Origin: Psilocybe cubensis
Taxonomy: Eukaryota
Direction of reading: 5' to 3'
DNA: 64,000 bases
Assembly (NCBI GenBank): GCA_017499595.2
Contig: CM039004.1
Location: 744,001 to 808,000, forward strand
Part shown: positions 6,706-32,142 of the stretch, in pieces
How positions within the stretch are numbered: the first letter of the stretch is position 1
Layout of the letters: each line of letters opens with the position of its first letter
The notes under the pieces: model-generated
Seen by the model: only the letters and a program-made list of their open reading frames with translations
The model's database searches: none
What the model was told of the DNA's origin: nothing
Position numbers and translations under genes: made by a program

Positions 6706-8774
6706 TCGAGAGGCTGATAGGGCATTGAGATCAGAGCATCTCATGATGGAGGTACGTCTGCAAATCATTATGCTAGCTGGGTGAATCATTTACTCGGTGT
6801 TCTACTCGGTGTTTTTTAGACTGTCATAGAACATCATCCCAAAAAATCACCTGGTACTCGTCGAGCATCATCTCCACCTCCAACCACACCGGCCCTCAAC
6901 TCTGATTGTCACCCGGGACCTCCAACAACTGACGATGAACAGTTTTTTGAGTCCGAAGATGACAACACTCCCAGTCAGGCCAGTTTATCAATTGTTGTTT
7001 AAATCCCAGGCCACCCGTTTTTTTGGATTCAGAATCAGATGGCGGCCAATTGCCCCCTCACAAACTACAGAAAGTGGTGTGTCTTACTGAACAGACACTG
7101 CGAACGCTGTTGACTAACATGCACATGGACTAGCAAAAGCAGAAAGCATTTGAGAAGAAACTCGATGACGAGGTATGTTTTATTCTAGTGCTTATTTCCG
7201 CTACTCAATGTTTTTGGCTCTAGCGTCCCAAAGAAAAGTCACAAAACATTACCAAACTGCATAAACCACCAGCATCAACAACATCAAACAATGCTGCTGT
7301 CCCAGTTGCTCATGACAACATGAATTGGATGCCCCACACAGCGCTGGTGCTCACCAAAAAAGGGAAGTCGGTATATGCTGTGGGTATTAAAGAGCAATAG
7401 CCCGAGGTTCAAAAGGTCCTTCGGCACGCTTTTGAGGTCAGTGAGTCGTATATCGCGTATGGAATTTCATCAGATATTATAGCGCATATCAAAAATTCCA
7501 ATCCCACCTTCGTTATCCCAACCCCAATAGCCACTAGAGGTCTGGATTTCATTTCGCTCCAAGCTCTGATATCTTCCGCAGAGGAACTTGGTTTTGGAGA
7601 GGAGTACAACATTGTGCGCCGCCTCGAAACGGGTGACTATGCAACATATGTCAGGCCATTAACCATGCATGTGTGTATCCCCTGATTCCTAATACTTTTT
7701 TTGTGTATAACTGGTCATATAGGTTAGCCATCGCCTTGGTATTTACAGAACCACCTTGAGATCCAAGATTGCTGCTGTCGTTCCTGTGCAACTTCGTCTT
7801 GATCGTAACGATAAACGTCGGATTGCCTCACTGCTTGAGATGTCTAATTATATTTACCCTGAGTTGGGAACAATGGTATGCTTCCTTGATCTTATGTGGT
7901 ACAAAACTGACAGTTCTATATAGGAGTATGAACGCTCCAAACCCTTCCAATCGGACCTCATCACGTCCGCTATTAAGGTCGCATTTTTTGGTCCTGATAG
8001 CACAGCCACAAAGTTCTTGACCTTGTTCAAGTCATCGCTACCTGACAAACCAAAGGAGTTGGAAGTTCCAGCTAGCATGATTTCCATGGCTGCTACTGCG
8101 GTGAGCTTCTTAATTTTTTTATGTCGCATTAACCTTAGGCTGAAGGTAACCCACAGATTCACGCATATTTACTTCAAATGCAATTCATCAACCCAAATCA
8201 GGTCCTCGAGTTCTCGGGCACGACATTCAACCATACATATGAAATTCACAGCGGTCTACTCAAGGAAATTCAGGAGCGTAAGCCGATTGTGTACCATAAG
8301 ATGGTGCATAATATGTATCTCAAAATCACATATGTCTTACTTTTGTCTGTTCAATGTGGTATTGAGAACTAATCTGCGTAAATTAGTGGACTGTCCTCAA
8401 CTGCTAGGCTGATGGCCCAGCAGGAGATTATCAATTCGGTTGACTGGGACAATATGATTGACGAGTAGAGGTAGTTTACTGTAGACTACTAATGTTTTTT
8501 CTGTGTCTCGTAAATAGTACTTGTTTCTTGTCTGTCTATTGAGTGGGCCCCTCAATACATTCCATCAATTGTGTACATTTCATAGATACTGATATGAATT
8601 GTCGCCAATTATGGGCATTTTGACAGCTAATATTGCCCAATTATCAGACATGCATGGTAAGGGGACCGGAGAATTAGACCCTAATACAATCCAAACCAGG
8701 TAATGAAACTAATGTATCGAAATTATGCTAAAGGGCTCAATTATCTACCAATTCTAATGGTTTACAACCTAATT

Positions 8775-8797
8775 GGCATGGGGGGGTTTCCCTGATG
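8775..8797. mobile_element. Putative right terminus of a second large CATC-ended element containing the 1181-8468 genes
   Basis: Reverse complement reads CATCAGGGAAACCCCCCCATGCC. It follows an AT-rich subterminal zone after the DUF6532-like stop and directly abuts the open recombinase frame. The left end is not visible. Confidence 0.5.
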
Positions 8798-9471
8798 TTG
8801 ACCATTGATTCTTACTATATTATACAATCTAGTGTGTCTACCTGTGTGCTGGGTAATCCTGTTACACCACGTCGGTCACGCGCTCTTCTCCTCTCCCCCC
8901 TGTGCCCCACCTCTGCCACTGACTCCCCTTCTCAATGTTGGGCGCGACCATACCGTGTGGATCTTACACCAATTCCATCCCTGCTTCGCCCACACTGCCC
9001 TGCTGCAGACCGCCTGCTCAAATGGGTCCCAGCAACATTGCAAACTGCCTCTGATGCTGCGGGTTGTGCTGTTCCACTGTCTGAAGGTGATCTGGAACGT
9101 GTCCTCACCGTTCTTGGTGCTCGCTACGCGGAGGGAACCAGCAGTGCGTATGGCAGCACCTTACTGGTCTTTCATGTTTGGTGTGACCTTCGTGAGGTTC
9201 CCGAAGAGCAGCAATGCCCTGTAAGCAATATCCTCCTTCTTGCATTTCTGTCTTCGTGCGCAGGCATGTATTCTGGGGCACAGGTCACCAATATATCCTA
9301 TGGTGTTCGCGCGTGGCACACGCTTCATGGACACCCGCTTGTATACAGCAAGCTCGAAGTCGATGCAGCCCTCGCTGCTGGCAAGAAACTTGCACCCCGT
9401 TCATCTCGCCGTCCCAAGCGTGCACCTTTCACTCCTTCTGTCATTGAGTCCATACGGACTCACCTTGATCT
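8798..9471 (+). pseudogene. 5' half of a DIRS/Ngaro-type tyrosine recombinase
   Basis: LRPHCPAADRLLKW, TSSAYGSTLLVFHVWCD, YGVRAWHTLHG and RPKRAPFT are typical of basidiomycete YR-retrotransposon recombinases. It joins 35563+ in frame. Confidence 0.85.
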
Positions 9472-11222
9472 CATCTGTAAACTCTGATTTTCGGGCTATA
9501 GCATGCGGCTAGCTTTAGCGCCAAGCTCGGCTAGCGTGGTAGCGCCAAAGTGTTACATAACTTTCTTTTGACTTCTCTATAGTGCTTGGTAGCACTTGAT
9601 AGTCATCGACTCGCTATATAACCGCTGTTTGATAAATTTGTAGCACTACCTAGTAAGCGTACTTATTGTACCACTACCTAGCAAGGATATATATCAGTAG
9701 TAATTCGAGGTTTTTGTGTAGTAGTTGATAGGTCATTGCCCAAATAAAGCTGCTTTCGGTACTTATGGGAGTTCCAGTGGATAAACATAATGAAAAGATG
9801 AATGAATTAACAAAAGTAAATACCACATTTCATGTGTTACCAATATAAAACTACAACTACCGACTAATCTATGGGCATTCCAACTCGCGCGGTGGACAGG
9901 TAATCGTATACTAATATGAGCGATCCTGCCAAGGTGTCTGCTCGAGGCAATGAATATCCAGGCCGCGGAAAGAGGGCATGCCGTGTCGGGGCGCAAGGTC
10001 GCTAAGCTGGTTGCGGCAAGGCGATATGTGGTGTCTATATAGGTGAGTACGCCTTCAGCGCATTATAAAAGCAAATGCTCACCTAGAAACGCCACTTGCA
10101 GACCCGATATATTCTCTTTGAGAGATCCTACAATCCAAATCCAAGGTGAGCACTACAAAAGGTCAGTATAATAGAACAAATACAAATTTACTTCAGCTTA
10201 CCGGAGTCGATGTAGTGGCTTGGGTGCAACCGTTATGGTTCACAATGGACTAGGAGACGCAAAGCGAGAGGGAAGAGGGAAGGAGTGGGGGGGACAAGAA
10301 ACGACTCCGAAGGCCGTGTTGTTTTGGCAGAGGATTTGTATGACCTATGTGCCAGAAAGTCTATGTAGTGAATACAGCAGACACTAGTAGTACGTACCTG
10401 GATGTACAACAGCGAACCAACCAACCACCCTTCAAGCTTCAAGGCTCACCAATACACCCGCATGGACTCGACTCACGATGGGATGCTGGACGAGGGACGT
10501 ACTCTGCACAGGTCAGTCGGTGTGGGTGGACAAAAGCAGACATTTCTGGTACGTACCTGCATTCCCTTTCACAACCACCCACCCTGATACCCCAAAACCC
10601 CGCCAGTCGTGTGTTTGGCGCCGTCCGGTATGTTCTATGACAGAGGTGCACCTGCATTATGTGGGTGTGAGGCTGTCGTATGACTGCAAGCCACGAACGT
10701 ACCACCAAGATAACCCCACCACGCATCTCTCGCGTCTAAAGTGACGACTTGATGCATTGCGCTGTTTTTGGCGATGTGGATATCAGGGATAAATGACAGA
10801 GTGCATAAGTACAATAGAATTCGACTAAAATGTATGAGCACTTAGCAAATTAATTTGATTCTGTGATCCCTCGGATTTTGAGTCGAAGCGTTACAAAAAT
10901 CCAATTTTGAGTCTGTTATAATGAGTCTTAATCATTGAAGCTTAGAAAATCTTACCGCCTTGTGAACCTTGAGTTCCTAATCATATTGAACTCGCTGCTG
11001 AATAAAATTGCCAGTCAGTGGATGTAGTAAAAAGGGTGATAGCGCTTCACCTGTTGTTTCGTTTGTCAACATTTGACAAAGGCTCCCGGTATCCGCACAG
11101 CTTTTCTCTTTTCACCTTCTCCAACCACCACCACCCACCACCTCGCTTTCTTCTCCAACCAACGCCCGACCACTGCTCTCTTTACTACCAATTCACTCAT
11201 CAACTCACTTGCTCCTCGTACC

Positions 11223-11713
11223 ATGCCTGACTTGACAAAAATCGTAGACAAGGCCAAGCAATACATCGGCCTGGTCAAGCTGTTCAAGATCTTGGTTTTT
11301 GGGATTCTGGTCTTCTGTACGACAATCTTCGGAGACGTAATCGAGATCTGCCGTGTTCTCAACCGTTGGGTACTCGTTCAGAGCACAAAAGAGCTACACA
11401 AGAGTATGGTTGAAGGGGTCAGTTATGAGCAGTTGAGGGAAGAGAGGGTGAGACGTACTTTCAACGTCAAGATGTGTTCACAGAATCGAGGTGCGTGTAT
11501 TCGGCTGTACTTTATCGACATTCATAACTCTTTGCAGAATCGCGGGTCGTTATCGAGGGATCGATCCAGGAAAATACCAACGTCACCATCGGGGAGTTGA
11601 CCCGCGAACATTCGGGCGTCCCATTCGCGTTACATTTGCGGCGTTCCCGACTGACTCAGCCACGTTCACCAGTCCTTCCCGCAACAGAGCTCATCGTTCC
11701 ATATGACGTTTAG
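11223..11713 (+). CDS. Small hypothetical protein with one hydrophobic segment (cargo of the giant element)
   Basis: ATG at 11223, LFKILVFGILVFCTTIFG hydrophobic stretch, probable intron at 11491-11537, TAG at 11711-11713. Confidence 0.45.
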
Positions 11714-11985
11714 CACCCTGTTCTACATACACCACCACTTTCCCTTCGTTTCCTCTCATCCACCACTCAATTTTCTTGGTACCTTGCAATCATTTCACAT
11801 ACTTCTGCACTCTGTCTTCCCATGCTTTTTAACTGCTTTTGCTGGTGTGTTCTTGTACATAATTCTATCTTACAATATCTTGTTTACTGCTTGTTCTATA
11901 ACGGTTATACCTAAATCAACATTCTTGGCATATGATGTAATTGATTTAAGCGCGCGCTTACAAAAATCTAATCACATCAGATCTG

Positions 11986-12352
11986 TTTTTTTTTGTTTTT
12001 TTTTTGGTGGAGCATGCCAGCTCGAGCATCACCCTACACCCACAAAAACCCCTGTAGGTCGGATCCAGGCTTCCTGCAGGCCATCTCTGTCTGCAAGGAC
12101 CCCCCCCACGTAGCCTCAACTAGCGCTCTGTTAAGGCTCAGGCGACCAGTGTCTGTACCCTGGTTAAATATTGTGTAAAGCCACCAACCTCCATATTAAG
12201 GATCAGAGTGCGACCGTTCTGTGTTGGGTGGGACTTATTCCACTGGGCGAGTTGGCATCTAGTTTGCCCAGTACAGGACCCCATATCGCTGTCTGGTCGA
12301 CTTCATTCCCCATGTATGCTCCGAGTATGCGGGTCAGCCATCCCTCCATCAC
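11986..12352 (-). mobile_element. 367-bp internally deleted, 5'-truncated L1-like LINE copy
   Basis: Poly(T) followed by GGTGGAGC, like the full LINE 3' end. Encodes RILGAYMGN..WNKSHPTQNGRTLILNMEVGGFTQY fused to LNRALVEATWGGVL..GVFVGVG*, both homologous to the nearby ORF2. TSD TCACATCAGAT(C/T)TG at 11972-11985 and 12353-12366. Confidence 0.8.
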
Positions 12353-12444: not shown

Positions 12445-15400
12445 CTAAGGAGGAGAGTTCCAGCCTGATGATAAAGCCCAATAAAACTCTTTTGTAAAAT
12501 ACCGGTTTAAGCGGAATTCCAGGCTTAAACTGTGACTGTTATTGGTGTTAAGCACAGGATTTGCTTTTACCCCCAACCGAGGGGTCAGGTCTGCGAGAGC
12601 GCAAAGTTGATCCAATGGGAGGATGTCGGCCATAGGATTGCCATCTGCGCGCTTGCTTCGTTTCAAAATATACATTGATGTGGACGGCTCTGGATAAAGA
12701 CCGCGGTCTCTCGATCCTGAGGCGGCTGGTTGAAGGACGACTTCGAAGCGCTGGGAGTATGTGAGAAACTTGTCAGTGACATATGGTATTGCCGTGTTTG
12801 GTGACGTAGGAACTGCACGAAAAATAAAACGAACGTCGACTACAATATGGCCTTTGATGACAAAATGTTAGCATGAGTTTTCTAGTAACAAATAAATTCT
12901 ACCTTTCAGACCACTTTGTGGCCATGTGTGGTCCAAGTCCACATTTGCAATCGCGGAATCAAAGAGACCGCAAGGATGTTTCTCTGAGGGTGGAAAGGCA
13001 CGCATGGTTACAGGAGGAAGACGGTTATGTGGATAAAAATATGAAGTGGATTGTAAACAAACTTTCTCCCACACCTCTAATGTTTTGACCGGCAGAATGG
13101 AGTCCATAGAGGCATATCGACGACCACCAATATAGTCTATGTGGCCACTTGGAGGCTGTGAATTTCCGGTAAAATTAGTATCGGCGATACGCGAGACCTT
13201 CTGGATGTAGTCTGCAAGTGCTGCTTGTAGATCTGGGAGGTTAAACATTTGGGCAACCTTCTGGATTGACATTCGTTTATAGCTAGAATCACGGGACAGA
13301 TGAAATGCCACGTTTTTTGAAATTTGCTGCGTTCTGAGTGGATAGGGATAGATTCCTGGGGAAGATTGTTTTAAGTATCTCGCGTCCTGGAAATAGTTGG
13401 CAATTTCGCGTGATTGCGATCCGGAGTAAGGTGTATAGTAGTTGAGGTAATGGAGGAGGTCATCCACGGTTTTAACGGTAGGACCAGTTTCAAGGTCCTC
13501 GAGTTCAGATAAGTCCGAGCCAGAGCCAGAGTCAGAGTCATCTTGAGGTGGTGGCGCATTGCCAAATTGAAGACCCGTCATTTGAACTGATGTTGCAAGG
13601 TCAAAATTACGGAGTTTTTCCATTCGGTCAAGGTAGCGGCATATCTGAGCTTCATATTTCTGGTTATTGCTGGCTGAGGCGGGCTCTTTCACCAATTCAA
13701 TGTGCGCATGTTCTGTGGTGTCCGCTGACCACTGGATCGCAGCGCCGTTGCACCTAATATTGGGTACTACGCTTTGAAGAATTTCTAGCTTTGGAATGAA
13801 CCAGTGATTGATTCCAATGCCCTTTTGTCCGCGCCGAGCACGAGCATCTATGATACTTTTCTTATACTGGTGGAATCCTTGGAGAGCATTTGAAATTTTG
13901 GTGCATTGTTCTTCGTCGATGACCGGGGCTTGTGCAAGATATCAAAAATCCATGAGAAAGCGGAGCGCAAAGAGAAAGTCATTGAGAACGGCATTGGCTA
14001 TAAGTGCTATCAAGTAGCGCTCTATATCACGATGTTCTCGGCCTGTCACCTGTTTCAGTGATGATATCCCTTCCTTAAAATGTCGAAAACCAGCATGGCC
14101 CTGAAGGACTTTGAAACGAAAGTCTAATTCGGCGCCACCAACAGCATTGATACACCATTTCACTTCGTGATCCCAAAAAAGCTTATGCCAATGGTGGAGG
14201 GGTTCTGGTGTGAGGAAGACCGAAGGGTCTGACAATGGCCAATCACGCCAAAATGGGCGATGTACACCATTCAGACGAAATTTATCGAATGCAGCCTTAC
14301 GGTAGGTCTCAAGCTCCCAAGGATTGAGGTTCAATGGGGGCTGTTCTAGGCTGTGTAAGGCCCTGAGGGTCGAAAGTCCTGTCCTAGGCGGGTGGCGAAA
14401 TGGGTCTCCAAATTGTTTGTTGTGTGCCATGGTGAGTGACAATGTTTTCCCCGCAACCCCTGAAATTAGAGCTGATTCGGGAGTATCCACGATATAGGCT
14501 GCGAGTGGAGTGTAACAGCGTCTTACATTTCCGACGGGGTCAGACATCATGACTCCAACTGCCGCTGCTACTTTCAAAGGGGCGAGTACAATGTCGAGGC
14601 ATTCGTGAGTGAGTCTAGCTTCCAGCATTCCGCGGATATTTCTTTGTGGATGATGAAAAATCGGGATAGGAAGAAGGGCCAGAAGAATGAAATGATGGCC
14701 TGTTCCTTTATTACGCACGTCCATAAATATATTTCCACTGCTAATAAGTAAAGGATGTGCCTGTCGATTGCCTGTTTGTGCAGAGATTGATGTTTTGTCG
14801 GAGGAAATGATAGCCCCAATAAGTGTTGCGCCATCCTCCAATTCATCCTTTTTAAAAAATAGGGCATTAGGCATTATTTAAAGAGCTCATAGGTGATTCG
14901 ATACGGACCTGCATAAAGTGCGCAGCATCGCCTGACAACCATTCAGTGTAGACCCGCGTAACCTTTGCTGCAGACTCCCACAAGCGAAAGGGAGTAAAAT
15001 GAATTTTATCGAGTAGGAGGGGAGAGCTAATAAGGACCTGCAAGCATTCCACAGGATTTCGATAGAAAAGATATACAGGCTTTTGTGTAGGAACCGCTGG
15101 TACCACTCTCTGACTTTTCCAAGCGGGGCCTGAAGGTAACATTTCTGCCCGATTTCGAAGTTCCTGGGCGGAACGGAAAGACAAGGATTGTGATTTCACC
15201 TATGGTCCAATGATTCATGATATGTATGTAGTAATTTTTATGAAGACTTACTATCCTCAGTTTGAGGTATTTATTAATTTTTTCCATACTCATTTGGGAA
15301 CGCAAAAGAAAGAGTGCCAATTCCCACTCTTGAGACGAAGCAAATGGATAAAACACATTTAATCTTCGCTTGTCGGCATTTTTGTCCTGATTGAACTTCT

Positions 15401-15794
15401 CCATGAAAGTGCTACCAACACTGTATACCCGACCAGCGTTGGGATAATTTTCCTTGAAATAGGGTGAGGCTGGTTTCGAATCACCGGTTTGGTTTTCTCT
15501 CTCTGTGTTATCGGATTCATCGGGGAAATCATCCGGGAAATCATCGGGGAAGGCTTCCTGCTCTTGTGGCGAGTCGTCCACATCCATGGAGTTGTCTTGC
15601 TGTTGCGGTGTATCTTCAAAGGTGTCAACCATCGGGGAAGGGTTAGTCTGAAAGATTATAACATCTTCAAACATGTAACGACAACAAACTCTCGGTTGAT
15701 TCATATGGTTAAGGAGCCTCGATTCATCCGGAAATCGGGCGGTACATCAAGGGCAAAGGTACACACGCTGCATAGTGCGTTATTGACCTTCCAT
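12445..15794 (-). pseudogene. Plavaka-family transposase (4 exons) with premature stops
   Basis: N-terminal C2H2-like finger, FYPFASSQEWELA, LFYRNPVECL, RVYTEWLSGD, GATLIGAIISSDKT, AAYIVDTPE, PEPLHHWHK, ELDFRF, WFIPKLE..WSADTTEHAHI. Introns at 15251-15200, 14908-14848 and about 12902-12852. In-frame stops at 15782-15780, 15749-15747 and 13944-13942. Confidence 0.9.
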
Positions 15795-16189
15795 GGAGGT
15801 AGATGGAGGTAGATGATAAGTTCTGATAACACGTATGATCAGACGACATTTTTATAGCATGATCCAAGCGTGAGTTACCTCCATTATTAGCACATTGTTA
15901 TCAATGCATGATCTATAAATAGAATGTGGTTGAATAAACGATGAAGTTCAAGGAAATTTGTGCAGTATACGCCCTCTTCCGCCTTCTGAACACCAACATG
16001 TGGTATAGATCCAGCCTCTTGACTGGCCCCATTGACGCTTTCGGTATAAAACACTGAGGAACAGGGACAAGGCGAGACATATGCTTGAGATCTTGTAATA
16101 TTTTGTATAGGGTATAGTTAACACAAAACGAAAGCCACCAATTGAGAGATACTATATGTATGCAAAGAAGCACAGGCTTCTCGTCAATC

Positions 16190-16925
16190 CAGTATCCGCC
16201 CTCTTGGTTGATTGTTCCTTGTTTACCAGCAATTCCTCATCAATCTTGTCATTGAGACTAGGAAATTTGCGCTTGAGATCCATGAAAGCTAGGCGCTTCT
16301 CCCAAACGACCTGAGATTTATGATTCGGTGTCCTTGTCGTTGTCAGGATTGCTTTTGCGAGTTTGAGTGGGTAGGAGAATTCTGCTTGGAGTCGGGCTAG
16401 CCTATCCGACGATGTGACTTGTGATGCACGAGTCTTTAGGACGGCTTTGCTTTCTTGTCTTCGGAAGCATATGTAGGATTCGTTGAGAGTATCGGATTCA
16501 TTGCCCTTAATTGATAGAATAAGTATATAGAGTAAGGAAAGAAAATGAATAACTTACATTTACGGTGGGTATGATTTGGTGTCCTCGTCGTTCCAATCTG
16601 CGCTCCTTCCAATAAGGGTAAATGGTTCTTGCGTTTTGAGCAAGGCTTGCGGTGTAGGTATCAAACTTGGCACACTGTATGTCGCGAACATCGTCACCCG
16701 AAGTGTCGCAGAGAAGACATCCTGATACTTTGAGAAAGCAGGGAATTCCATGCCTGTCTCCAAGCTCTACAAGACATTATAAGTAGCAAATTCTCTGTCA
16801 ATGGCAAGTCACGTACGTGATGCAGATACTCCGTCTTGTCGTGCATTACTTTCTTAAATATACCCATCACCAACTCGAACTCATCTTCAGAGATAACAAT
16901 AGGGACCGAAAATTTGGGCTTCTTG
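16190..16925 (-). pseudogene. EPL1: Captured internal fragment of Enhancer of polycomb-like protein 1 (NuA4 subunit)
   Basis: ISEDEFELVMGIF, IYPYWKERRLERRGHQIIP, ESYICFRRQESKAVLKTR and SSDRLARLQAE match the EPL1/EPC core. Two introns are retained (about 16817-16767 and 16557-16506), there is a frameshift near 16630, and both termini are missing. Confidence 0.8.
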
Positions 16926-17219
16926 ACCTTCACATTTATACTACAAGCTGAAGCCTAGGAAACATAGTCCAAAGTTGAGAACCAGTGTGAGATTAGTGTT
17001 GTCAGTGTGCATTAAAAGTCCTTTAACCAGATACACACTAAAATATTTGATGCGGGCTTAGGATAATCACCAAGTAGCGAAGGAAAGGGTAAATAAATGA
17101 ATAAACAGAGATTTAAAAAAAGTGTACATGTTCATTAACTAACTGTATAGAGAATGCATCAAGAAATAGGACGGGGCATGCATCAAAAAATGGGACAGGA
17201 TGTGCAATGACAAGAAGTT

Positions 17220-20183
17220 TCATTTCATATCGTGTGACTCCACAGGCAGGTGTTTGTCAAGGAATTTTTTAGCTTGCAGAGCATTGTTATCGATAAGCTC
17301 TCTGTTCACTTTCCCGCCTCTCAGTATTCGTTTCCAGGCATTGGCGGAGAGAGGCTGACCACCATTTTCGATTTCTTTGAGATGGTCAAGGAAAAAACGC
17401 TCATTCCGTTCAGTCCACCCCAGCCAATTGTACCCGTTGAATGTTGACCATACATAAGGCGGCGGAAACCACAATTTAAGAGTGACTTGGCCTTTGATTT
17501 CTGTAAAATATCAGAATGGGCAATGTTGAAATGACAGGAATAATGTACCAGTGTAGATTGAATAAGTTCCGCATATTACTGCCAGCTCATCTTCCGTCAT
17601 CTCATCATCGCAATACGCGCTACCGTCAGAGACTGAATGGAACACAAAGCCAGAATGATGTTCTGTGACTTCAATCGAGGGTCCTTCCAAAGCTCCGTCA
17701 AGACTAGTATGCTCTCGGGCAATGCGTGAAATGATTCCACCCTTTAACAATGCCGCACGGCCGCGAGGCTGGTTAACCATAGCTTTAGAGTATATCATGG
17801 AGGCCTGAAAATCGTGATGAGAAAATTCATATCCCGCCTTCCGAAACAATGTTGCTGCATAAGCTGCCCGTAATGTCTGAGTGTCGGGTGATAGCCGCAA
17901 TGGCACTAGAGTGCGAAATGCGATGCATTCCTTCAAAAGATGACGTGCAATTGTGAGCAGCGTGTATCGAGGGTTAGATAAAGCAAGACGGCAGATATAT
18001 AGTGCAATTGCAGGGGACTCAACTCCCAAAACCCAGTCCACCGCCGTTGTGAACGGTTTTGTGAATATAAACATGTTCGGCGATGGTCTTTGAATAGATG
18101 AAAAGTCCAGCAAATGGCTCAGGGAGGAGTGATTAGTGTCATTCAGATCACACAATTCGGCCAGCATCTGTGAATCTGACTTTACCAAGGCGGTGAAGAA
18201 TTTGATGATGCATTGCCGCTCCGTTGGTGAGAGCTGCTCATCCTGTCCGCCTACTTCGAATCCAAAGCATCTAGATACAGCTTTCCAGCTCTCTGATGAA
18301 GTTTCTGTTGCATTGACATTGGGTAAGGCCGGCACGTAACCATATCCATACTTCAAAGTGAGAATTGTGTCTTGCTTTGGCGTCTGGCGCACTGTGTCTG
18401 CTACGACAAACAGTTCCGGTGTGGAGTCAATTGTGGGCTTTTCAAGCTCCTGTCGACTATCGTCTACATGTGAAGAAGGCTGGGACAGCTGTTCAGAGAA
18501 GTACGGTGCCATATCGGAGCTTTCACTATCATCGACATCAGAAAGATCTTTAGGATCGCCGTAATCAACTTCATCGTCCATGTCGTCACCCTGTGCCAGT
18601 TCAAGAGGCGGTTTGAAGCCAGTGCAGAGATTCCACTCGTTGGTGATAGCGTCATAGACTCTTTGAGACTTTGGATAGCTATGGTACATCAATAGCTGAT
18701 TGTTCTTGTTCACGCGAAGTCTGAGGTAGAGTTTCTTCCCTCGCGAAGAACGAATTATCTTCCATTGGTAGATATTTGACTGTTCGAGAGGTGGGGGAGT
18801 CTTCTGGCATATTTTGAAGTATTCGATCATATCTTCCCTCTCGATAGCCAAAAATTCACTATTCCGTTTCGCTCTATTGTCAAAAAAGGCCTTCCAGTTA
18901 GCAAAAAGAGAACCCCTCTCCATTTCGTCCAGCCATCCAATCGCCTCTCGCATGGGTGCATTGGCCGCAAGATGAGCCACCTCTTTCTTAGCTGATGATT
19001 CAGCGGATACTTTTGACTCCAACCTCTTGAGTATCTCCGGAAATTGTGCTTCATTGGCCATGTCCTCGTTGGACATATACTCATAAAAAATATTTCTCAC
19101 CACTGTCGGTTTTTGTTTCCAATCCAGAGGAAAGATTTTTCGCGCATCTGCATTGTGTGGATTACAGTAGCGCTGTATTAGCAGCATGCACATCATTGCG
19201 TCAGAACCCTTGAGAATGGAACCCAGCGCTTTTCGAACCAAAGCTTCCGGGGGTTCAAAGGCCTTGAGAGAACGATCAAGAAGTACTGCTTCATCCTCGA
19301 CCATTGTCCATGGATAGTACACGGGGATGTGATGGTCAAAGAAGAACTGGATTGGCGGTCTGGATTTATCATGCTTGCTCAAGCGTAGAATGACACCGGC
19401 GCAAGGGGTGGTCCAGTCAAATGAAAGTACTGACGATGAGCATAACCCATCCAGCCAAGGGCCTTCAAGCGAACTTTGTTCTGAGAGTTTTTTGTACCAG
19501 TATGGATAAGGTTGATATGTGTGCTGCGGCTTGATAGCAACTTGATATTCGTGGCGCAATGCTTGAGTAATGAGATAAGAAAGATATCCCATCCAGACCA
19601 CAAACCAGCTCCTGGCCAAGGTTATCATTGTTCGAAGAATTTCAGGAGACTTCTGTGGTTTATTATAATGGAAAAACGACGGAGGTGGAGGAGAGGTACC
19701 GGGTATACCATGCTGCAACCGCAAGTAATGTGCTGCGCACAGTATGTTCCGTTCTGTGGTTTCCCAATGCAATCTATCGGCCTCCTGCATGACGTACTTG
19801 GGGTGTTCTTCTTTCTCTGAGTCTTCAGACTCTTTGGACGTTAAGGGTTCTATAATTGGGATCCAGCATAGGTTTTCAAAAGGATATGACAGAAAGGAAG
19901 GTGCAAGGGGGACGAAGGAAAGCCATCCAAATACATCCGACCACCAAACAGGTTGCTTGAACATTGCAGCGTTGAGGCGCTTGCCTTCAAAGGGACTGAC
20001 GACGTGTCCAGGTTCGGGAGGGATAACTACGGGGCGTTGCAAGTTTGGAGAGCAATAGATAGTCCCATCCTGGACAAATACACATCCTTGTTCCCAGTCA
20101 ATCTGAACGTTAGGATACTCCAGCATCAGGGCGAACTCTCTGATAAAAAATGGATTAAGGAACGAGTGAAGAGACGAAGACAA
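17220..20183 (-). CDS. Large hypothetical protein (about 950 aa), TE-associated; true start uncertain
   Basis: 890-codon open frame plus a final exon after an intron near 17550-17500. C-terminal motifs PRGRAALLKGGIISRIARE, DDEMTEDELAVICGTY, WFPPPYVW and GWTERNERFF. No named domain recognised. Confidence 0.75.
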
Positions 20184-20497
20184 TCATTTTTACTTACCGT
20201 TTAACAACACAAACAGGTTGTTTAGTCAAGTTACGGACGATATTGAGTCAAAAAAAGCTGAAGGACATTGAGTATTGGCTACGGATAACGATCGTGAACT
20301 TACAAAGTGATGCGAAGCCTTAGCTACCAGCTTTTCGAGATTTACTGCTTCTGACAACAGCGGTGCAGATTGCAAGATAGTGCGTCGGAAGGACACGAAG
20401 ATGGCGACGGCGGTAGAGGGATGACGGGCGCGACAGGTCGAAGAATGGAATCGCCACGGAATCGGAGCGAGATGAGAGGATCAGCTTAGTTGAAGAT

Positions 20498-21594
20498 ATA
20501 TAGACAAAACGTTCATCTATATCGCTTCAAAATAAGAAGTCCAGACCAGCGTGAGGTGTCTTGATTAACACTAGCGGGCAGAATACCAGGGGGGAAGTGG
20601 ATTCCACGGAATCACCACGGAATCGCAAGTTTGGCCAGAGGATTTAACGTGATTGACGATATACAGACGAAACGTTCATCTGTATATCTTCAATTGGCAT
20701 AAGCCGAGTTAGAGGATGACGGCGAATTGGCAAATACAGACAAAACGTTCATCTGTATTCCCAATATACGCGACGTTGATGGTTAAGGCAACTAAGCGAG
20801 ATCCAATAGTGCGCAGAGCAACAGTCACGTGATTTAATTTCAATCTCCGATTAAATTAACTTGGAGGAACGTTGATGCTTGCTCTGATTCCCACCCTATC
20901 TTCCCCGCACCCACTGGTGTCGATAAGGAATACAGAAGAACGTTTCTTCTGTATTTCTTTCTGACATTCAGTGGGCATGTTTTCCTCCAAATAAACCTCG
21001 ATCTGCCTCCTTCCTCTTCCCAACCATGTTTTTTACCCTATCCAAGTTGCCCGCGCGCCCACTGATATGATTGATAAGGAATACAGGAGAACGTTTCTTC
21101 TGTATTTCTTTCTGACATCCAGTGGGCGTGTTTTCCTCCAAGTAAACCTTGATCTGCTTTTCCTCTTCCCAACCATGTTTTTTTTACCCTATCTTGCCCG
21201 CGCCCACTGTTTGATCGATAAGAAATATAGAAGAACATTTCTTCTGTATTTCTTTCTGACATTCAGTCGTCGTTTCTCCTCCAAGTAAACCTTGTTCTGC
21301 CTCCTTCCTCTTCCCAACCAAGATTCTCACCCTATTTTACCCGCACCCCCTGATGTCGATGAGGAATACAGGAGAACATTTCTTCTCTATTTCTTTTTCA
21401 CATCAAATGTTCGTATGCCCCACCAAATACACGCATGCCTCCTTCTGCTTCCCAACCGACCAGTAATCCATCCCTCAACTCTGATCATCAACAGAATCCA
21501 AGGGCTAGTTCAGGCATTTGATAATTTACCCTCTTTTGTCCACCTTGTCGCAGGCGCTTCGATTCGACAGGGAATACAGAGTTTCTTCTATATT
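20498..21594. repeat. Array of 7-8 quasi-palindromic 25-bp motifs; the right-hand copies sit in tandem units of about 140-150 bp
   Basis: Consensus ATACAGAWGAACGTTTYKTCTGTAT. Inverted copies at 20498, 20661 and 20734; forward copies at 20930, 21081, 21225 and 21366; a degenerate copy at 21574. Confidence 0.85.
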
Positions 21595-21880
21595 CCTTGT
21601 TTGCTTGGTGAGCGTCTAGTCATGTTCGTTGTATCTTATTAGCGATCACTAACACCTCACGACTTCAGACAATGAACGCTTTACCAAATCTTATCAGCAG
21701 CCTATAGCATCTCTATCATGTGACTGCTGCCCTACATGTAGTAAACAGACTACTAGTACGTTCCCACACTGCTCTTTCTCTATTGCCTCGGTTCACTGTG
21801 TAGTACGTTTTGTACCTCCAGCTTCGCACCTCAATCTGATTCATTCTTCCTTAGTTAATCTAAATCTACAATTCACCACA

Positions 21881-22344
21881 ATGATCACCACATCGTTCGC
21901 GGTCGTTGACAATGAGGTGAGTATCAAATTGTCCCTCGAATTCATGACCATTTTGTACTGATTGTCTTCAGATAATTACCCTACAGCAAGCCTTCAAAAT
22001 GCTCAAACATGCGAAGGACGAGCTTGTTCAGCGCCGTGAAAAGCAACTTGAATTGTGCATTCGAGTTGATGAAGCCATCGCAGCAATGAAGAAGGCCGAC
22101 GTCGAACTATTTGAGGCAGAACTCGAGCTGGGGAGAGTCAGGCACATCATTTCAAAAATTGGTGTTGAGCTTCCCCTTCTTGACCGACAACGGACGCCCA
22201 ACAACATTGAGGAATTCTTGTTCAAAACTCACGGGTGTAAGTACTCACTTTCTCTTAACTCGTACCGCACGTCTTAACTTGTCAATAGCTTTGCATACGG
22301 TGGAGCACCCATCTTTTGGTGTCATGGGGATTGTGTTGGACTAG
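21881..22344 (+). CDS. Small coiled-coil hypothetical protein, 3 exons (cargo)
   Basis: ATG at 21881, two canonical introns (GTGAGT..CAG and GTAAGT..TAG), heptad-like LKHAKDELVQRREKQLEL, TAG ending at 22344. Confidence 0.65.
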
Positions 22345-22584: not shown

Positions 22585-25500
22585 ATGTCTAACGATAAAT
22601 CGAAGAATACTGGAACTCGTAAGGCCAATGCCAACTCGAAAACCTCTCAACCTCAACCACGCGCTATGACGCAACAAACTGCAAGTAGGGTCCATCAAGC
22701 TAATGGCGACAAAGGTATGAGCTTTTTTTGATTTTTTCAATAGCTGACCTGTCCTCTTTTTCCGTCTTTTTTCAGACAACAATGCCATTGACATGCCAGC
22801 AAATGGACGGCCAGTCCAGAGCACTCGTGGCCAAGGCGGGAGCTTGACACAATTGCAAAAAACAAGCAATGTCGTGGGGCGCCAACTTGAACTCATGCAG
22901 CAGAAGCAACAGCAGAAGCGGCAGTGCTCTCGCGATGATCAACCTACGCCCACTCGCCTTGAAAAGGGTGGAGAATCCTTGGCTCGTAACGATCTGGCTC
23001 CTCCAGCTAAACGTGCTCGCGGTGAGGTAAGCCTGTATTGCTATACAATGTATTGACTCTGATATAACCCTCATCTGATCTTTCAAGGCCCGAGTCACCA
23101 TTGTCGATAGACACGATGCGCCGTTGTTTTCTGGTGTGTCCAATCTTGGCTATGCTTCATCCACTGCAAGGCAACAAAATTCTGGAGCAGCGCCACCAAA
23201 TGCATCAATACGTCTCGAGCAACCGGGTAGAACAAATCAAACAAGTCTCAACACCAGCGCACCCCCGTCTCAACCACAAAGTTTGGCCAGGGCGTCCAAT
23301 GGCAATGCGCCTCAACCTGCCCAACCTCAAGTCCAACAAAGAGGTCCTCAGGAACATCAGCGAGCTTCCACGGCAGCCATGCCCCTCCAGTATGAGCGTG
23401 TAGGCCAAACCGAACAAACTTTGATTCAGCAGCATGGTATGAGTTTTTCTTTGACTTTAACATGTCCACTTATATTGTAGGCGGGGCGCAACGAGCAGAG
23501 AATCAATATACTAATTATCAGCTCAATGTATGTTGATTATCACATTCTCTGCATTATTTCTGATAAATTTGTAGACTATTCATGACGATATTTACGGCTC
23601 CCCATCTAATGATCGCAATCACAATAACCACGCCGACGATTATGACGACAATCACGCCGGTGTCGAAAATGATATGGATGCTGATGGAGAGGAAGATGAA
23701 GAAGCAGGAGAAGTAGACAAGCCTGAGGAAAGCAATGGATATGACGATGGGTTGGAACATGCTTCGCAGGCTCGCCAGGGTCCGGCTGACGTTAGTCCTA
23801 GCCACTTCAAATTCTCTTCAGACTTTGTGCGTTGCTGACTATCATGTTAGATCACTCTGGACCTTAGTCAAGTAAATCCATTTGACAACCGATTTTACCC
23901 TGGAGGCGAATTCGACTACATGGGGCAACAGCAAACTGGCACCAACCTGGATGGTAATTCCGGTCTCCGTAAGTTTATCCTCAGAGTCCAGGCCTTTCCA
24001 CTTCTCTCAAACTCTGTGATATACCCAGGGGTTGTTGACCAAATCTCGGATGGTGAGGAGGAACGAAGGGCGATGCAACATCTTTGGGATTTTGTACCGG
24101 AAAGGAACGCACACAACAATGTAAGTGTCTTCTTATTCAATTTGAAGAACCTTTGTTATATTCATATTGGTCTAGGATGACTCAAATGTTCAAGATATTC
24201 TCCGGGAACACCACCTGCGAAACCCCCTCGTCGCCCTCCTTCTGTTCAGTACCTTGCTGAGGTAGCTGCTCGTCAAGAACCTCGTTGTCGAACCACTTCA
24301 AAATCGGCCGAGCTACCGGAAGAGGAGCAAGGCAAAGAGCAGGATGAAGAACAGTTCAAACAGCAGTTCGAGGACGATAGTGTCTCTTTTTCTGGTGACA
24401 ACAACAACAACAACAACAACAACAACGACAATGACAATGACAATGACAATGACAATGACAACAACAACGACAACAACAACAACAGCAAGAACAACAAAAA
24501 GAAAGGTAGCCGAAAGAGAGATCCCGACATGACATGCTTACGACCATATCCGAAACCAATTCAGACCGTGCTTGAGCATGCAAAGAATTTGTATAGAAAA
24601 CATATTGTTGAAGAACACTCATTTCCTTCTCGTAGAGTTGACCTGACAGATGCGACCACTTGCATCGCCCAAGCGTTCTCGGCTCACAAAAAAGAGCATA
24701 ACATGCGGTTTTCAGACAGTAAGTCAGATCATTGTTGTATTATTCTTCTCGTTGATTAACTGGTGTTCAGAATACGCTATCAACCGATCAATGTCGGTCC
24801 TGGTGAGTTTTATAATCGCAGTTTTAATTGCTGTACAAGGATTCATTTAATTGATCTCTAGGTTTTCAAAGAGGCTGCCTGCTATAGAGGCAGCCTCAAA
24901 ACAATGTGCCGAAACCTTGTACAAATTCATTATCGGGATGTGATTACCGTGTCAAAAGAAACTCGACGAGCATTTACCAGACCTCAATTGGTCCAGGAAC
25001 ATGAGAATGAAGATGCAATTCCGTTATCCGACGGGGTGCATCCAGTCAATAAGTATGGCGCACAGCAAGTCGACGACGACGATGACATTGAGGAGCCATT
25101 CCCGCAACAAAGGGATGAGCCGACTCTCATTTGTCAACAAGTGGAGCACGTACTTGGTGAAGATTGTCTATTTCTCGCTGGAAAAAACGATTCAAATGTT
25201 GGTATTTGCTTCTATTCTATGTTGATTCACACTGACTACTTATCTTTCTTTTTAGGAAAAACGGACTAACTTCGGCCATCCATGTGTGGAGGCCGCGGTC
25301 CTCCAGTTTTTTTATAATCCCCGCAATGGGATTGCGAAACTCTTCCCGGAATCATTCAAAGAAAGTATCTCTAACAATGCCCTCGCATTAGTGGCAACCA
25401 TTGTAAGTTGGCTTTCTTCTATTGAATATTGTATTACAACAATATCTCATTGTAATCCAGATAAAGTGCTGTCTCGATGAATACGCCACCGGGACCTTTA

Positions 25501-25762
25501 TCGGACTGGAACTAACAACAGCAAAGTATGGCAATGTCCATACTGGGATGCTCGCGTTTATTGATATGATTCAGAAGAATTCATATCATGGTGCCAAGCT
25601 CGAGCAGCGTTGTCGCCACTGGGCAAAGAAGGGCATGTGAGTATTGCTTTGGCATTGTTTGTTTTACTCATTTTCCCCTTCATTGACAACCTTTACAGGG
25701 AATTTCTCAGATCTTGTCCCAATGTCTCCAACCAACTTCAGTTCCGGCCTGTTCTGGACTGA
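22585..25762 (+). CDS. Multi-exon protein with a low-complexity N-terminus and a C-terminal DUF6532-like domain (may carry lesions)
   Basis: Many canonical introns. NFGHPCVEAAVLQFFY..GIAKLFPESF..ALALVATI|IKCCLDEYATG..YGNVHTGML..YHGAKLEQRCRHWA..FRPVLD*. Confidence 0.75.
24397..24497 (+). repeat. Coding (AAC)n/(GACAAT)n microsatellite (Asn/Asp tract)
   Basis: Directly visible inside the DUF6532-like gene. Confidence 0.9.
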
Positions 25763-26194
25763 AGTCGGTTGGTTGGCGGTTGGTTGGCAACATCAGCAGA
25801 AAAAGAAAAAACTCAGTAGTGCTATAGTTGTATAATAGACTGGGTAGTCTTGTTGACTGCCCCCCTATTTTATTGCTCCCGTAGCTTCCCACCTAAAGTC
25901 AGTAGACCCTGTAGATTTCTTAGTCATATATGTAGCTTTTGTAGTTTTCTATAATTCTAACAAATAGTATAATAATAATCTATAGATACTACTGGTACTA
26001 CATTGCTAATGCACAATTTGATATTGAGTAAAAATCATCAATAGGGCATTCTACTCCCTCCAACTAGTTGACTATGAATAGTAAGCATCCACCAAGTCCA
26101 ACAATACACTATACCTCTACTTAACTCTTTTTAACCCATCCACTATTAGAATTAGTTAATTAGATAACAACAGAAAAGATATGGTTATGACTGG

Positions 26195-26228
<34 letters not shown>

Positions 26229-26370
26229 GTGGAGCCTTTAGGATCCTGGACAATCAACAAGGTTGACCTCCAAGATCGGCTTTTTTTACGTCACACGTAG
26301 TGACGTTTAACCCCGGGGAAATGTCTTAGCACGCTCTGTGTGAGAGCAGTGTAGGACTGGGGAACCGTTT

Positions 26371-29300
26371 TCAACGGTTGCGTCCAGACGGACACCCCTC
26401 TATACCCACTAAAACCCCGGCGGCTGTGAGCCAGTCATCACCCAGGTCTCCCTGGTTGAGTAGCACCCCCCACCAGGTTTTTTGAACCAGTGAGGGGTTG
26501 AGTGCTCTTTTTCCGTAGCGTCTCTCATTTGTTGAGAGGCAGTCGATTTTGAGTCGTCTGTTTATGGTTTGTATCCATTTTTGTCGGATTCCGTCGTCAC
26601 TAATTATTTTGTCGTCTCGTGCTCCGTGTTCAATTTTCCACTTGCATCTCATTTTCCAGATGAGGTGTGCGCTCTCAGATATCAGTATCGCGTAGAGCCT
26701 GTTCGCTCCCGTTAATGTGGTTCTTTTCTTTTCCGGATGGAAGTTTGCGAGGCCGCACCCAAGTATGTGTCCAATTTTTGGTTTTTTCCAGTCGAGTTTA
26801 CGGAGGCTCCATAGTTCTTCGGCTGCTTGCCATACTGCTTCTTGGCCTGTCGCTCTGCACTCGGTGAGTATGTGTTCCATTGTGTCTGTTGTTTGGCAGA
26901 CGTGGCAGTAGCCTCTGATTTCGTAGCCTGGGATCCGTTCCCAGTATTCGCCCACTTTGTAGGCATCGTGCATGGTTTTCCAGAGGAAGGCTCTTCCTCG
27001 GACTGAGATGTCTCTTTTCTTTATGGCCGCCCAGATTTGTTTATCTGTTGGCAGACATCTTCCTATTTCTTCTGCAGCGTATCGTGTCTTGTCTAGGTTT
27101 ATTAGGGTTTGTCTCCTCGGTTCTACTTTTTCCTTTTCTCTTCTCATTATAGCTTTGTATGCGGTTGACTGGGACATCGCCTGTATCTTAATCCCAATTT
27201 GGTGTTGTGTGGTAGGTTGTTCCCTTGGTGGTTCATCTGGTCTGTCATTTCTTACTTCTCCGTGTGCAGGAGAGATCAGGTTTTGGGCCTCTTCGAGGGT
27301 CGTCCACTCATCTGGTTCGTCCTCGGTTATTGTCTGGAAAGTTGTTTGAGCTTTCCTCTGTCGTAGAAGGTTTAGTATTTCTTGCAGAATGTCTGCATCG
27401 TGGTCCTTTGTCCACCCACAGTCTTCTAGGTGGTGAATTTGTTCATGGAGCATTTTTGTCAGGTGGGGTGATTTTGATTTGAAGTCAAGTTTAACGGTAT
27501 GTTGCTCGTCGCGTAGTATGAGTTGGAGCAGGGTTAGCATGCTGCGTCTTGCTGTCTGCGTGGGGCCTGTTCTTTTAATGGTGAAGTTCTTTGCGTTATT
27601 TCCTGCATACCAGGCTACTCCAGATGATGTTGCCGTCTCAGTGTTAGTGTTCTTACACGTGCTGGCTAAGTATATGACTTGTTTGTCTTCCGGGTCTGGT
27701 TCTGGTTCTGGTTCCTCCTCGAATACGGGGGGATAGGCTTGTACTTGTCTGTCTCCTGGTTCCGGCGTGGGCGGCTTACTTCTGAAAACTCTCAGGTTGG
27801 ACAGAGGTGTTCCGTTTGTTGAAGTTTTTGGATTGAAGATAACTGGCTTGTTTGTCATTATGTTCCGGTTGTTTGTCTCCACATCCTGTGCTGATAAGCT
27901 GGGGATGTCTTCTGCCTTCCTTGGGTCCCAATTTGGGAGTAGGATGTCCAATACTTTTGCAGCTGCCTCGCGACATAGTGCTGGGTTGTTGCAGCCGGCG
28001 GCTCTGTCTTCTTTACATAATGCACATTTGCAGTTTCTACGTCGCAGGTGGCCTCTGCCGTTATTTCGGTGGGCAAAGGCCGCCATCTGGCCTGTCAGCG
28101 ATATATGGTGGTTTTGCTGCTGGCATCTTACCCATTTGTGTGTTCTGTACGACCTTTTGTTCGGGTCGAAGCCTATGTGGTGCCAGATTGGCATTTGTTC
28201 TCTCATTTGTTTGCCTGGGTTCACGTCGTGGACTCCAACATTGTACTTTCTTGCTGTTGCTAGCATGTCTCGTAGGCTGTCTGGTATGTTAGGGTTACTT
28301 TGTAGTTTCGCTGTCCAGTTTTGCAGGAAGTAGTTGTCTTCTTTTGCAACATCGGGGACGTCAAAGGCCTGGTTTGCGTTTAGGACAAGGATTTGGTCTG
28401 CTACTTTAGCCCATCTCGGCCTATCTTTTGGGGGCTTTGTAAAGTTTCGGAGTTTCATGAGCTCTATGGCTTCGTTTCGCGCTTTTATATCTAGTAGGTT
28501 TCTGCCTCCCTCATTTATTGGTAGGCGTATTGTGTTAATATTTACGGTGGCGGATTTGTCGTCCCAGAAGAATTTGTGGATCTTCTTTTCAATCTGGTCA
28601 GCTACTTCTTTGGGCATACTTTGTACTTGGGCCTTGTATTGGGTGAGTCCCCCAACGACCATGTTTATGATTAGTCGGCGGCCTTCTTGGGTTGGATGGC
28701 TTCTTCCCCATCTCGCAAGTTGCTTATCGATTTTTTCAAGTGTAGGCGTCCACACTGACAGGTTTTTAATGTCGTTTCCAATGTAGGCTCCCAGGAGTCT
28801 TACTGGTTCTGAGTCTCTTGCTATTTTAATGCTTGGGTCAATGTGTGTGGTGTTGGACGGTTTAAGTTTTCGGGTGTCTATTACATTCTTACGGTATTGT
28901 GGTGATCCCGCTGGTATTATTACTGTCTTGTTCTGATTGAACTTTGCCCCCGACACTTTGCACCATTTCTGTAGGACACCAAAAAGAGTTTGTATGTCAT
29001 CGTCTTTGCATAGGTAGACCGTCGTGTCATCAGCAAACAGGGTTGTAATCAGCCTTTCTGTTTCTCCCTTGATTTTGAATCCTTGTAGAGGTGAGTCCCG
29101 GAGTAGTTGCGCTAGAGACTCTATTGCTAAGTTGAAAATAAGGCAGGAGAGGGGGTCTCCTTGGCGGACTCCTCTGGTTATTTTGTACGGTTCGCCTATT
29201 TCTCCATTTATAATGATTACAGTTTCTCCATTTTCATATAGTGTTCTTACTGAATTTATAAAGTGCTGCGGGAGATTTAGTTTCTCCAGTGTTAGCCATA

Positions 29301-31365: not shown

Positions 31366-32142
31366 TTGTAGCGGTGGTCTTTGCTCTATGTGGGCACCCG
31401 GGTTTGGGGAGGCGGCCGTGGTTGACCTGTCTGGGCATTGCCCTACACTGGCAGGGTTTCTTGAGGATTGACTTATGTCGCGGTCCTCACCCTCCGTTTG
31501 TGTTTGCGGCCTTACGGCTGCGCTGAAATAGCATCTGTCTCCGTGAAATCCAGAACCTTCATTGGAGTGTAGACCGACAGTGGAGTCTACAGTACCTCTG
31601 GTTTCTGAAAGTGCTGTGCCAATACAGGTGTTAACTACCGATGATTGGGAAAGACGAATATACGAAGAAGTCGGTTTCGAGGATTCCGGCAGTAACGACT
31701 ATCTAACCGGGTCCGGAGCCAATTTACCAAGGCTGCCTCAGGCAGAGCATGTTGGGAAGTACTTTCTGATTCTATTCCTAGATAATAGTTATCAGTATTC
31801 CATCGCAACTTCAGTCTCTCGACACGGCACGTCATTGACCTAAATAGGTCGCCGTTTGCGCTTCATATGAAGCTGCTTTTCACTCGGGCTTTCCTGTCCC
31901 AATTTGCATTAGTCAGTATGTGTGGGCCCTAGTGTCGATTATGAGCAAAGCACTTGTTTGTACCTTACCTCAATCTGAGGGGTTCGTCAATCTAGGTGCG
32001 AGTATGTGGCATGTACGACATGTCATTGTTCTATGTATGGTACACCAGTTACGTTACATAGAAGGGTACGGTGGGGTTCATATAGGTGGTAGTACAAAAA
32101 AATAAAGAGGAGAAAAAAAAAGAGGGAGGGGAGGGGAGGGTC

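Follow-up and report, generated by a model that had tools for sequence, protein, structure and literature searches.

A Plavaka DNA transposon of Psilocybe cubensis carrying a decayed, intron-bearing copy of part of the host gene EPL1

Introduction

How did a broken, intron-containing piece of EPL1, a gene for a chromatin protein, come to lie beside a transposase gene in Psilocybe cubensis, and does it do anything there? The locus lies in a 64,000-nt stretch of contig CM039004.1 (assembly GCA_017499595.2, positions 744,001–808,000 of the forward strand), hereafter called the window. A first-pass annotation, made from the sequence of the window, had proposed that a transposon captured the piece at the DNA level, in the style of Pack-CACTA elements, and that the capture is either neutral or of consequence for silencing. 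Here, we describe the piece, its donor and its carrier element, and we estimate the relative age of the capture.

The EPL1 fragment and its donor

Translation of the minus strand of 16190–16951 yields three EPL1-like protein pieces separated by two GT..AG introns, the middle piece changing frame. The motifs from which the EPL1-like core had been recognized are all found on this strand: SEDEFELVM in 16817–16951, IYPYWKERR in 16558–16632, and YICFRR in 16190–16505. The similarity is not a matter of chance, as exon 3 matches host EPL1 with an E-value of 3.5e-43 and 80% identity. In the protein search with the third piece, 94 of 219 candidates had E-values of 0.001 or better. The top match, with complete identity, is P0001 (KAH9479207.1, named EPL1, 1163 aa), the public model of the window locus itself. 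The next match, P0002 (KAH9475176.1, 1028 aa, 80% identity), is the true host EPL1; it is encoded on a different contig and carries PF10513 (E 5.8e-29). The donor gene is thus located on another contig than the element (2.56 Mb versus 3.52 Mb).

From 16190 to ~16953, the minus strand of the window is a genomic copy of P. cubensis EPL1 that corresponds to host residues ~182–405. When an X was placed at the frameshift, host residues 182–404 of 1028 were aligned, with 181 of 223 columns identical. In the reading direction, the copy begins with a 5'-truncated exon (16817–16953, host residues ~182–226), in which homology to the host extends to 16930 by local alignment and, as a degenerate match read by eye, to ~16953. 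This exon is followed by a retained host intron of 50 nt (16767–16816), which is absent from the spliced host contig, an exon copy (16558–16766, host residues 227–296) with a 1-nt deletion frameshift near 16633, a second retained host intron of 52 nt (16506–16557), and a third exon copy (16190–16505, host residues ~297–405). The third exon copy contains a scrambled stretch at 16319–16341 with a net loss of 9 nt, and it appears to end ~1 nt short of the next intron of the host. The frameshift is real and is the copy's own, because the host carries one more base behind 16633. The fragment lacks host residues 1–181 and 406–1028, i.e. both termini are missing as had been reported, and it lies on the same strand as the transposase gene and upstream of it, ~420 bp from the likely transposase start codon (15773).

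The comparison with the host locus was based on sequencing runs, four of the 14 listed runs being aligned to window positions 14000–19000 at 80% likeness. A genomic host contig of run X10 (8,918 bp) aligns through 16190–16930, including both introns, with 58 substitutions and 14 gap letters (~92% identity), and both introns lie at the host splice positions. In run X13, which is RNA by guess and contains host EPL1 only, an apparently spliced contig lacks precisely the 50 and 52 nt of the two introns and shows 51 substitutions in 639 exon nucleotides. Outside the scrambled stretch, the cubensis residue is present in the fragment at five, and the cyanescens residue at none, of the six sites where the two differ; judged from these residues, the donor is of the cubensis lineage.

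A second captured piece of 41 nt (16081–16121, minus strand) is separated from the main fragment by an unassigned filler of 68 nt (16122–16189, minus strand), for which no convincing match was found elsewhere in the window. The 41-nt piece comes from the EPL1 locus ~2.45 kb further 3' in the host and is matched by the same X10 host contig, as judged by depth (87.5), with 166 letters left over. Since the stop codon is located 1,971–2,017 nt after the same codon in five related EPL1 loci, an offset of ~2.45 kb would place the origin of this piece ~440 nt past the host stop codon.

A partial copy of EPL1 was also seen elsewhere. In one metagenome EPL1 locus (L014:770–1071), the same exon is immediately preceded by a partial duplicate of itself (a local duplication), and no Plavaka gene was found on this 2.9-kb contig. 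Several short or odd EPL1-like proteins of other mushrooms (P0072, P0092, and P0093) may be further partial duplicates.

The carrier element and its insertion site

The ends of the carrier were found by scanning for terminal pairs that enclose the EPL1 locus. They delimit a whole PlavakaB-type DNA transposon of 26,091 bp (9472–35562), which measures ~17.4 kb when two nested LINE insertions are subtracted. The left terminal inverted repeat (TIR; 9472–9491, plus strand) starts with CATCTGTAAA and resembles the terminus of PlavakaB-2_SLL, CATCAGTAAA (Fig. S2 of PMC12730594), matching it at 9 of the first 10 bases, and is unlike the TGT..ACA ends of PlavakaA. The right TIR (35543–35562, minus strand) matches the left one in inverted orientation at 18 of 20 bases, and the element is flanked by a 2-bp target-site duplication (TSD), CT, at 9470–9471 and 35563–35564. 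The chance expectation for such terminal pairs is ~0.08, and 0.005 when the duplication is included. PlavakaB elements are described as having CATCA..TGATG ends and duplications of 2–3 bp (Kojima 2025, PMC12730594). The 2-bp TSD fits this description, and the element ends in CATCT..AGATG at both sides, with T at the fifth base versus A in PlavakaB. No TIR-plus-TSD pair starting with CAC stood out in the terminal-pair scan. Plavaka has been placed in the CACTA-related CMCT clade (PMC12730594), and the carrier belongs to the Plavaka lineage, not to CACTA proper.

The element is inserted into a tyrosine-recombinase gene on the plus strand, the 5' half of which (8732–9471) gave no Pfam match on its own, while the 3' half (35563–36192) matches PF00589 (E 6.3e-07) and is in frame with the 5' half. 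Excision of 9472–35562 in silico restores an open tyrosine-recombinase frame of 458 codons. Because the split gene is otherwise fully open, the insertion appears to be recent in comparison with the capture of EPL1 sequence.

Gene content of the element and its surroundings

The EPL1 fragment sits between the Plavaka transposase gene and a partner gene of ~950 aa. The former (12445–15773, minus strand) encodes a Plavaka transposase with DUF6830 (PF18759, E 5.5e-88, and PF20722, E 7.4e-47, on protein P0095; PF18759 on the window exons, E 6.8e-68 and 1.2e-16). Compared with its homologues, it has two nonsense codons (15747–15749 and 13942–13944) and no frameshift. The partner gene (17220–20126, minus strand) is intact and has one intron, and its own stop codon (17220–17222) coincides with the C-terminal end of three homologues. 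PF28437 is present in eight of the nine other homologues of this gene, and EPL1 is listed for none of them.

Two arrays of palindromic repeats (20447–21457) lie between divergent genes and consist of two families, one with ~41-nt units and the other with ~145–150-nt units containing an internal palindrome; they are possible binding sites for an element protein. On the plus strand follow a small spliced ORF (21880–22341, exons read by eye), negative in the Pfam search, and a multi-exon DUF6532 gene with approximate ends (22585–25762; PF20149, E 8.9e-08, on exon 25259–25408). An ORF in the left arm of the element (11223–11600, 126 codons) has a hydrophobic stretch and no Pfam match. As for further captured genes, none of 88 frames of at least 38 aa in the regions of the element left without annotation had a Pfam match above the cut-off, and a frame in the spacer (15890–16117) had only two weak matches, to repetitive proteins, among 1.84 billion sequences.

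The two nested insertions are both on the minus strand: a short LINE fragment (11983–12352) with an 11-bp TSD, similar to the ORF2 of the window's LINE (blastx, E 1.7e-16), and a full-length LINE (26199–34471) with RVT_1 and endonuclease matches, an open ORF2 frame of 1775 codons, and a 16-bp TSD, one copy of which is at 26183–26198. The latter is inserted into tRNA-like sequence of the Plavaka element and may be a tRNA-targeting LINE; ARAGORN predicts a tRNA-Tyr at 34471–34542, and a second tRNA-like stretch near 34770 was read by eye.

Several other features were identified in the window outside the Plavaka element. These include an AT-rich, foldback-like element (3943–6700) with 900-bp inverted arms of 94–96% identity, of which one frame was tested and had no Pfam match; a second DUF6532 gene (7100–8450, E 1.2e-06), which is probably left over from a different element; and a 1.25-kb direct duplication (40150–44338) of 91% identity with 2.9 kb spacing. 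A Copia-type LTR element (46181–50814) with identical 181-bp LTRs, an open frame of 1395 codons, and a CpG observed/expected ratio of 1.4 is a very recent insertion.

Capture at the DNA level

Since the introns are kept, the EPL1 fragment is of genomic and not of cDNA origin. Both captured pieces (16081–16953) lie between the TIRs of 9472–35562. In a contig of a sister family from run X10 (9,484 bp), the transposase and partner genes are collinear with those of the window (80–85% alike in matched pieces), and the spacer between them measures 995 letters versus 2,011 in the window; as the sister family is distant, its shorter spacer cannot be taken as a genuine allele from before the capture. 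TE boundaries belonging to the fragment itself were searched for, and no TSD, TIR, or Helitron 3' end was found. The retention of introns at host positions, the location within TIR- and TSD-bounded ends, and the sister spacer shorter by ~1 kb show that the Plavaka lineage copied genomic EPL1 DNA into the spacer between the partner gene and the transposase gene. The DNA-level capture proposed earlier is thus upheld. Its label, 'Pack-CACTA style', holds as an analogy and fails as a classification: the carrier is a Plavaka with CATC..GATG ends that bears a transposase gene, whereas Pack-TYPE elements are non-autonomous.

The likely route would be a break inside the element, followed by repair synthesis that switched its template onto EPL1. 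There may have been two such switches, or a single one of at least 3.3 kb, an inner part of which was deleted afterwards; repair of this kind would account for two pieces that keep the order and orientation of the host.

Decay and relative age of the fragment

Conservation was assessed over 202 codons (host residues 191–404 minus 351–361 and the frameshift) with 64 full-length homologues. The copy differs from the host at 26 of these codons, and 11 of the 26 are in columns conserved at 90% or more, which make up 84 of the 202 columns (Fisher p 1.0). In four orthologues, 0 of 7, 0 of 31, 0 of 31, and 0 of 29 changes fall in such columns. Three invariant EPL1 residues are altered in the fragment (D298N, R313Q, and R319L), and PF10513, which represents the EPcA region, was detected neither on P0001 nor on the exon pieces. 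Changes at chance rate in conserved columns, together with the frameshift, favour the neutral outcome that the first-pass annotation had offered as one option and show that the fragment has no function as a protein and has decayed neutrally.

Rates of change were derived from 28 of the 35 listed differences in the fragment (the seven in the scrambled stretch being dropped), out of ~58 differing sites. The direction of change was taken from the mutation class and not from an outgroup, metagenome EPL1 loci (64–81% DNA identity) being too distant to serve as such. Among the listed differences, transitions with T or A in the copy comprise 10 non-synonymous, one synonymous, and one intronic change, versus one, seven, and one, respectively, for those with T or A in the host (Fisher p 0.001), as would be expected if the copy decays and the donor is conserved. 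Decay of the copy amounts to ~3.6% per site from the listed sites, and the amino acid changes imply a value nearer 6%.

At the decay rate of the fragment, the ~6 kb of transposase and partner gene would be expected to contain ~10.9 stops, and two are present, both in the transposase gene and none in the partner gene. In simulations at the full rate, this deficit had a P of 0.0007 without indels and was reached in 0 of 1,500 runs with indels; at half the rate, P was 0.10 without indels (not significant) and 0.002 with them. Because the fragment has decayed far more than the element's own genes, the capture probably predates this insertion, and the fragment would have travelled with an active lineage, riding along while selection held the element's own genes open. 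Error-prone copying at the time of capture could mimic such age, which would weaken the argument. Later, the present copy was deprived of its transposase by two nonsense changes, and it received the two LINE insertions.

Copy number and presence/absence among isolates

In the raw reads of run X8, the mean depth is 16.5x over the 17 of 30 bins in which neither EPL1 nor the sister family is matched, and at 28 sites host alleles and copy alleles are covered 28.9x and 16.1x, respectively. This ratio of 0.56 would be consistent with a dikaryon in which one of the two nuclei has a single copy. In run X5, two allele contigs have depths of 9.4 and 8.8, i.e. ~1:1. No extra copies of the EPL1 fragment were detected by depth in X8 and X5. 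Since no second copy carrying it was seen by read depth, movement of the fragment is inferred and not observed. None of five aligned records from X10 reaches 95%, and the host EPL1 locus is one unbroken contig in this run, which points to an isolate without the element copy, although contigs cannot prove it. X4 contains the window stretch, while hardly any of its sequence words recur in X10–X12, runs with an identical species label. The element is polymorphic among isolates, and the EPL1 fragment is a low-copy presence/absence passenger, not amplified cargo.

Alternative explanations

Two other origins of the fragment were weighed. Arrival on a nested carrier of its own, Pack-MULE-like or a Helitron, inserted into the Plavaka spacer, would explain why a 9-bp direct repeat (15931 and 17098) brackets the insert and why ~140 bp of the extra ~1,016 bp are not attributed to EPL1. 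As 0.48 such repeats are expected by chance, no inverted repeat of at least 9 bp is present between the insert flanks, none of 30 CTRR sites has a Helitron-type hairpin, and the read depth of the spacer is flat and single-copy, we give this origin very little credence. It is also conceivable that EPL1 DNA was patched by ectopic break repair into a copy that had already landed, and never moved with the element. There is at most one copy per carrier haplotype, the protein cluster at 90% identity has three members that are all models of this locus by sequence, and the best other P. cubensis transposase is only 51% identical, all of which agrees with such a patch. A patch on a static copy should, however, decay no more than its surroundings, and the fragment is far more decayed than the transposase gene, the partner gene, and the interrupted recombinase frame; we therefore regard patching in place as unlikely. 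We consider it likely that a Plavaka lineage captured the DNA from EPL1, that the fragment decayed neutrally, that the capture is older than this insertion, and that the fragment is a low-copy passenger.

With regard to function, public gene models fuse the partner gene to the EPL1 fragment (P0001, i.e. KAH9479207.1, and P0096), and a UniRef model joins the partner gene, the fragment, and the transposase into 2095 aa. Most of KAH9479207.1, which bears the name 'Enhancer of polycomb-like protein 1', corresponds to a transposon gene. If the partner gene were spliced into the fragment, the 1163-aa fusion could recruit piccolo-NuA4 subunits to the element, and the fragment does cover host residues 200–398, which can be aligned with the Epl1 chains of solved piccolo-NuA4 structures. 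The model nevertheless passes over the stop codon of the partner gene and avoids the frameshift through a 44-nt intron that is not skipped in the host contig, the N-terminal nucleosome-anchoring part (PMC11962513) is absent, and the altered invariant residues and undetectable PF10513 noted above also count against such a role, to which we attach hardly any probability. As the frame of the partner gene closes at 17220, at the point where three of its homologues also terminate, the fusion models look like prediction artefacts.

The first-pass annotation had also raised a possible role in silencing, as small RNAs or methylation directed at the element would match EPL1, an essential host gene. On an extended version of this idea, the host would temper silencing and the element would be shielded. 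CpG methylation and 21-nt RNAs act against transposons in Pleurotus (PMC6191308), and a documented example of cross-talk that reaches donor genes comes from maize (10.1101/777037). The 13 stretches of 21–48 nt between the listed differences, one of which is the scrambled stretch, are long enough for 21-nt small RNAs. In addition, 6 of 12 copy-side transitions among the listed differences are at CpG, versus a background of 22% (p 0.034), a weak sign of CpG decay by which the fragment has probably been methylated. On the host side, 2 of 9 changes among the listed differences are at CpG (p 0.63 against the same background), i.e. without a CpG-decay signal. Furthermore, the fragment drifts from the host at a neutral rate so that identity is not kept, the element is not amplified, and the maize study itself reports no copy-number gain for capturing elements (10.1101/777037). 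Recurrent capture was searched for with the transposase, partner gene, DUF6532 pieces, and small ORFs (tblastn, E 1e-4 or better), and no Plavaka gene was found to adjoin any of the best 80 of 123 metagenome EPL1 loci, the flanks being at most 6 kb and many contigs short. A protective role of this kind would thus appear very improbable. The broader proposal that mushroom Plavaka elements habitually capture host DNA and that this lineage stayed active because sequence shared with a chromatin gene that the host needs blunted methylation or small-RNA silencing would, at best, rate scarcely higher. If the conflict reading were true, the locus would be a fungal case of epigenetic conflict.

Comparison with known systems

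Plants and an ascomycete already provide examples of gene fragments captured by DNA transposons, and in kind the event is therefore not new; no printed report pairing Plavaka with EPL1 was found in a search in which subscription papers were outside the coverage. What the locus adds is a cleanly bounded host-DNA capture by a transposase-bearing Plavaka, for which donor, breakpoints, retained introns, and relative age can be described. It also flags a misleading public annotation, the second 'EPL1' KAH9479207.1. With its carrier and non-carrier isolates, the locus is a natural experiment, in a basidiomycete, for asking whether silencing is attracted to a donor gene by the piece captured from it.

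With plant Pack-TYPE and Pack-CACTA elements (PMC8903248), the P. cubensis element shares fragments of host DNA between the TIRs of a CACTA-related element, which are easily misannotated as a gene. Elements of the Pack-TYPE class are non-autonomous, and their acquisition of DNA has been proposed to proceed via neighbouring insertions (PMC8903248), whereas the P. cubensis element encodes a transposase (a full-length gene with two nonsense codons) as well as partner genes, and its cargo edges were found to be free of internal TIR remnants. The Epl1/EPC scaffold of piccolo NuA4 is known from solved structures (PDB 5J9T, 5J9Q, 7ZVW, and 7VVU); the fragment matches the C-terminal half of the structured region but is truncated at both ends, frameshifted, and without some invariant residues.

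Among fungi, Helitrons of Pleurotus ostreatus with captured genes (PMC4289320) are likewise cargo-carrying class II elements in an agaric. The hAT element of Pyrenophora tritici-repentis with a histone H3-like gene (PMC3538342) is also a TIR-bounded, transposase-encoding fungal element in which a chromatin-gene sequence lies beside the transposase and an unknown ORF. Its cargo is described as a mostly intact ORF with 10 and 16 copies, ESTs, and an unclear donor (PMC3538342), whereas the cargo in P. cubensis is broken, retains introns, derives from a gene of the host itself, and is present in one copy in a basidiomycete Plavaka. With the PlavakaB elements of Agaricomycotina, the carrier shares the PF18759 transposase, CATC..GATG ends, a short TIR, and a 2-bp TSD (PMC12730594), and it differs from them in its fifth terminal base. 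The cargo described for PlavakaB is a whole TET/JBP gene, which has been proposed to aid escape from silencing (PMC12730594), whereas the cargo of the P. cubensis element is a dead fragment of a host gene.
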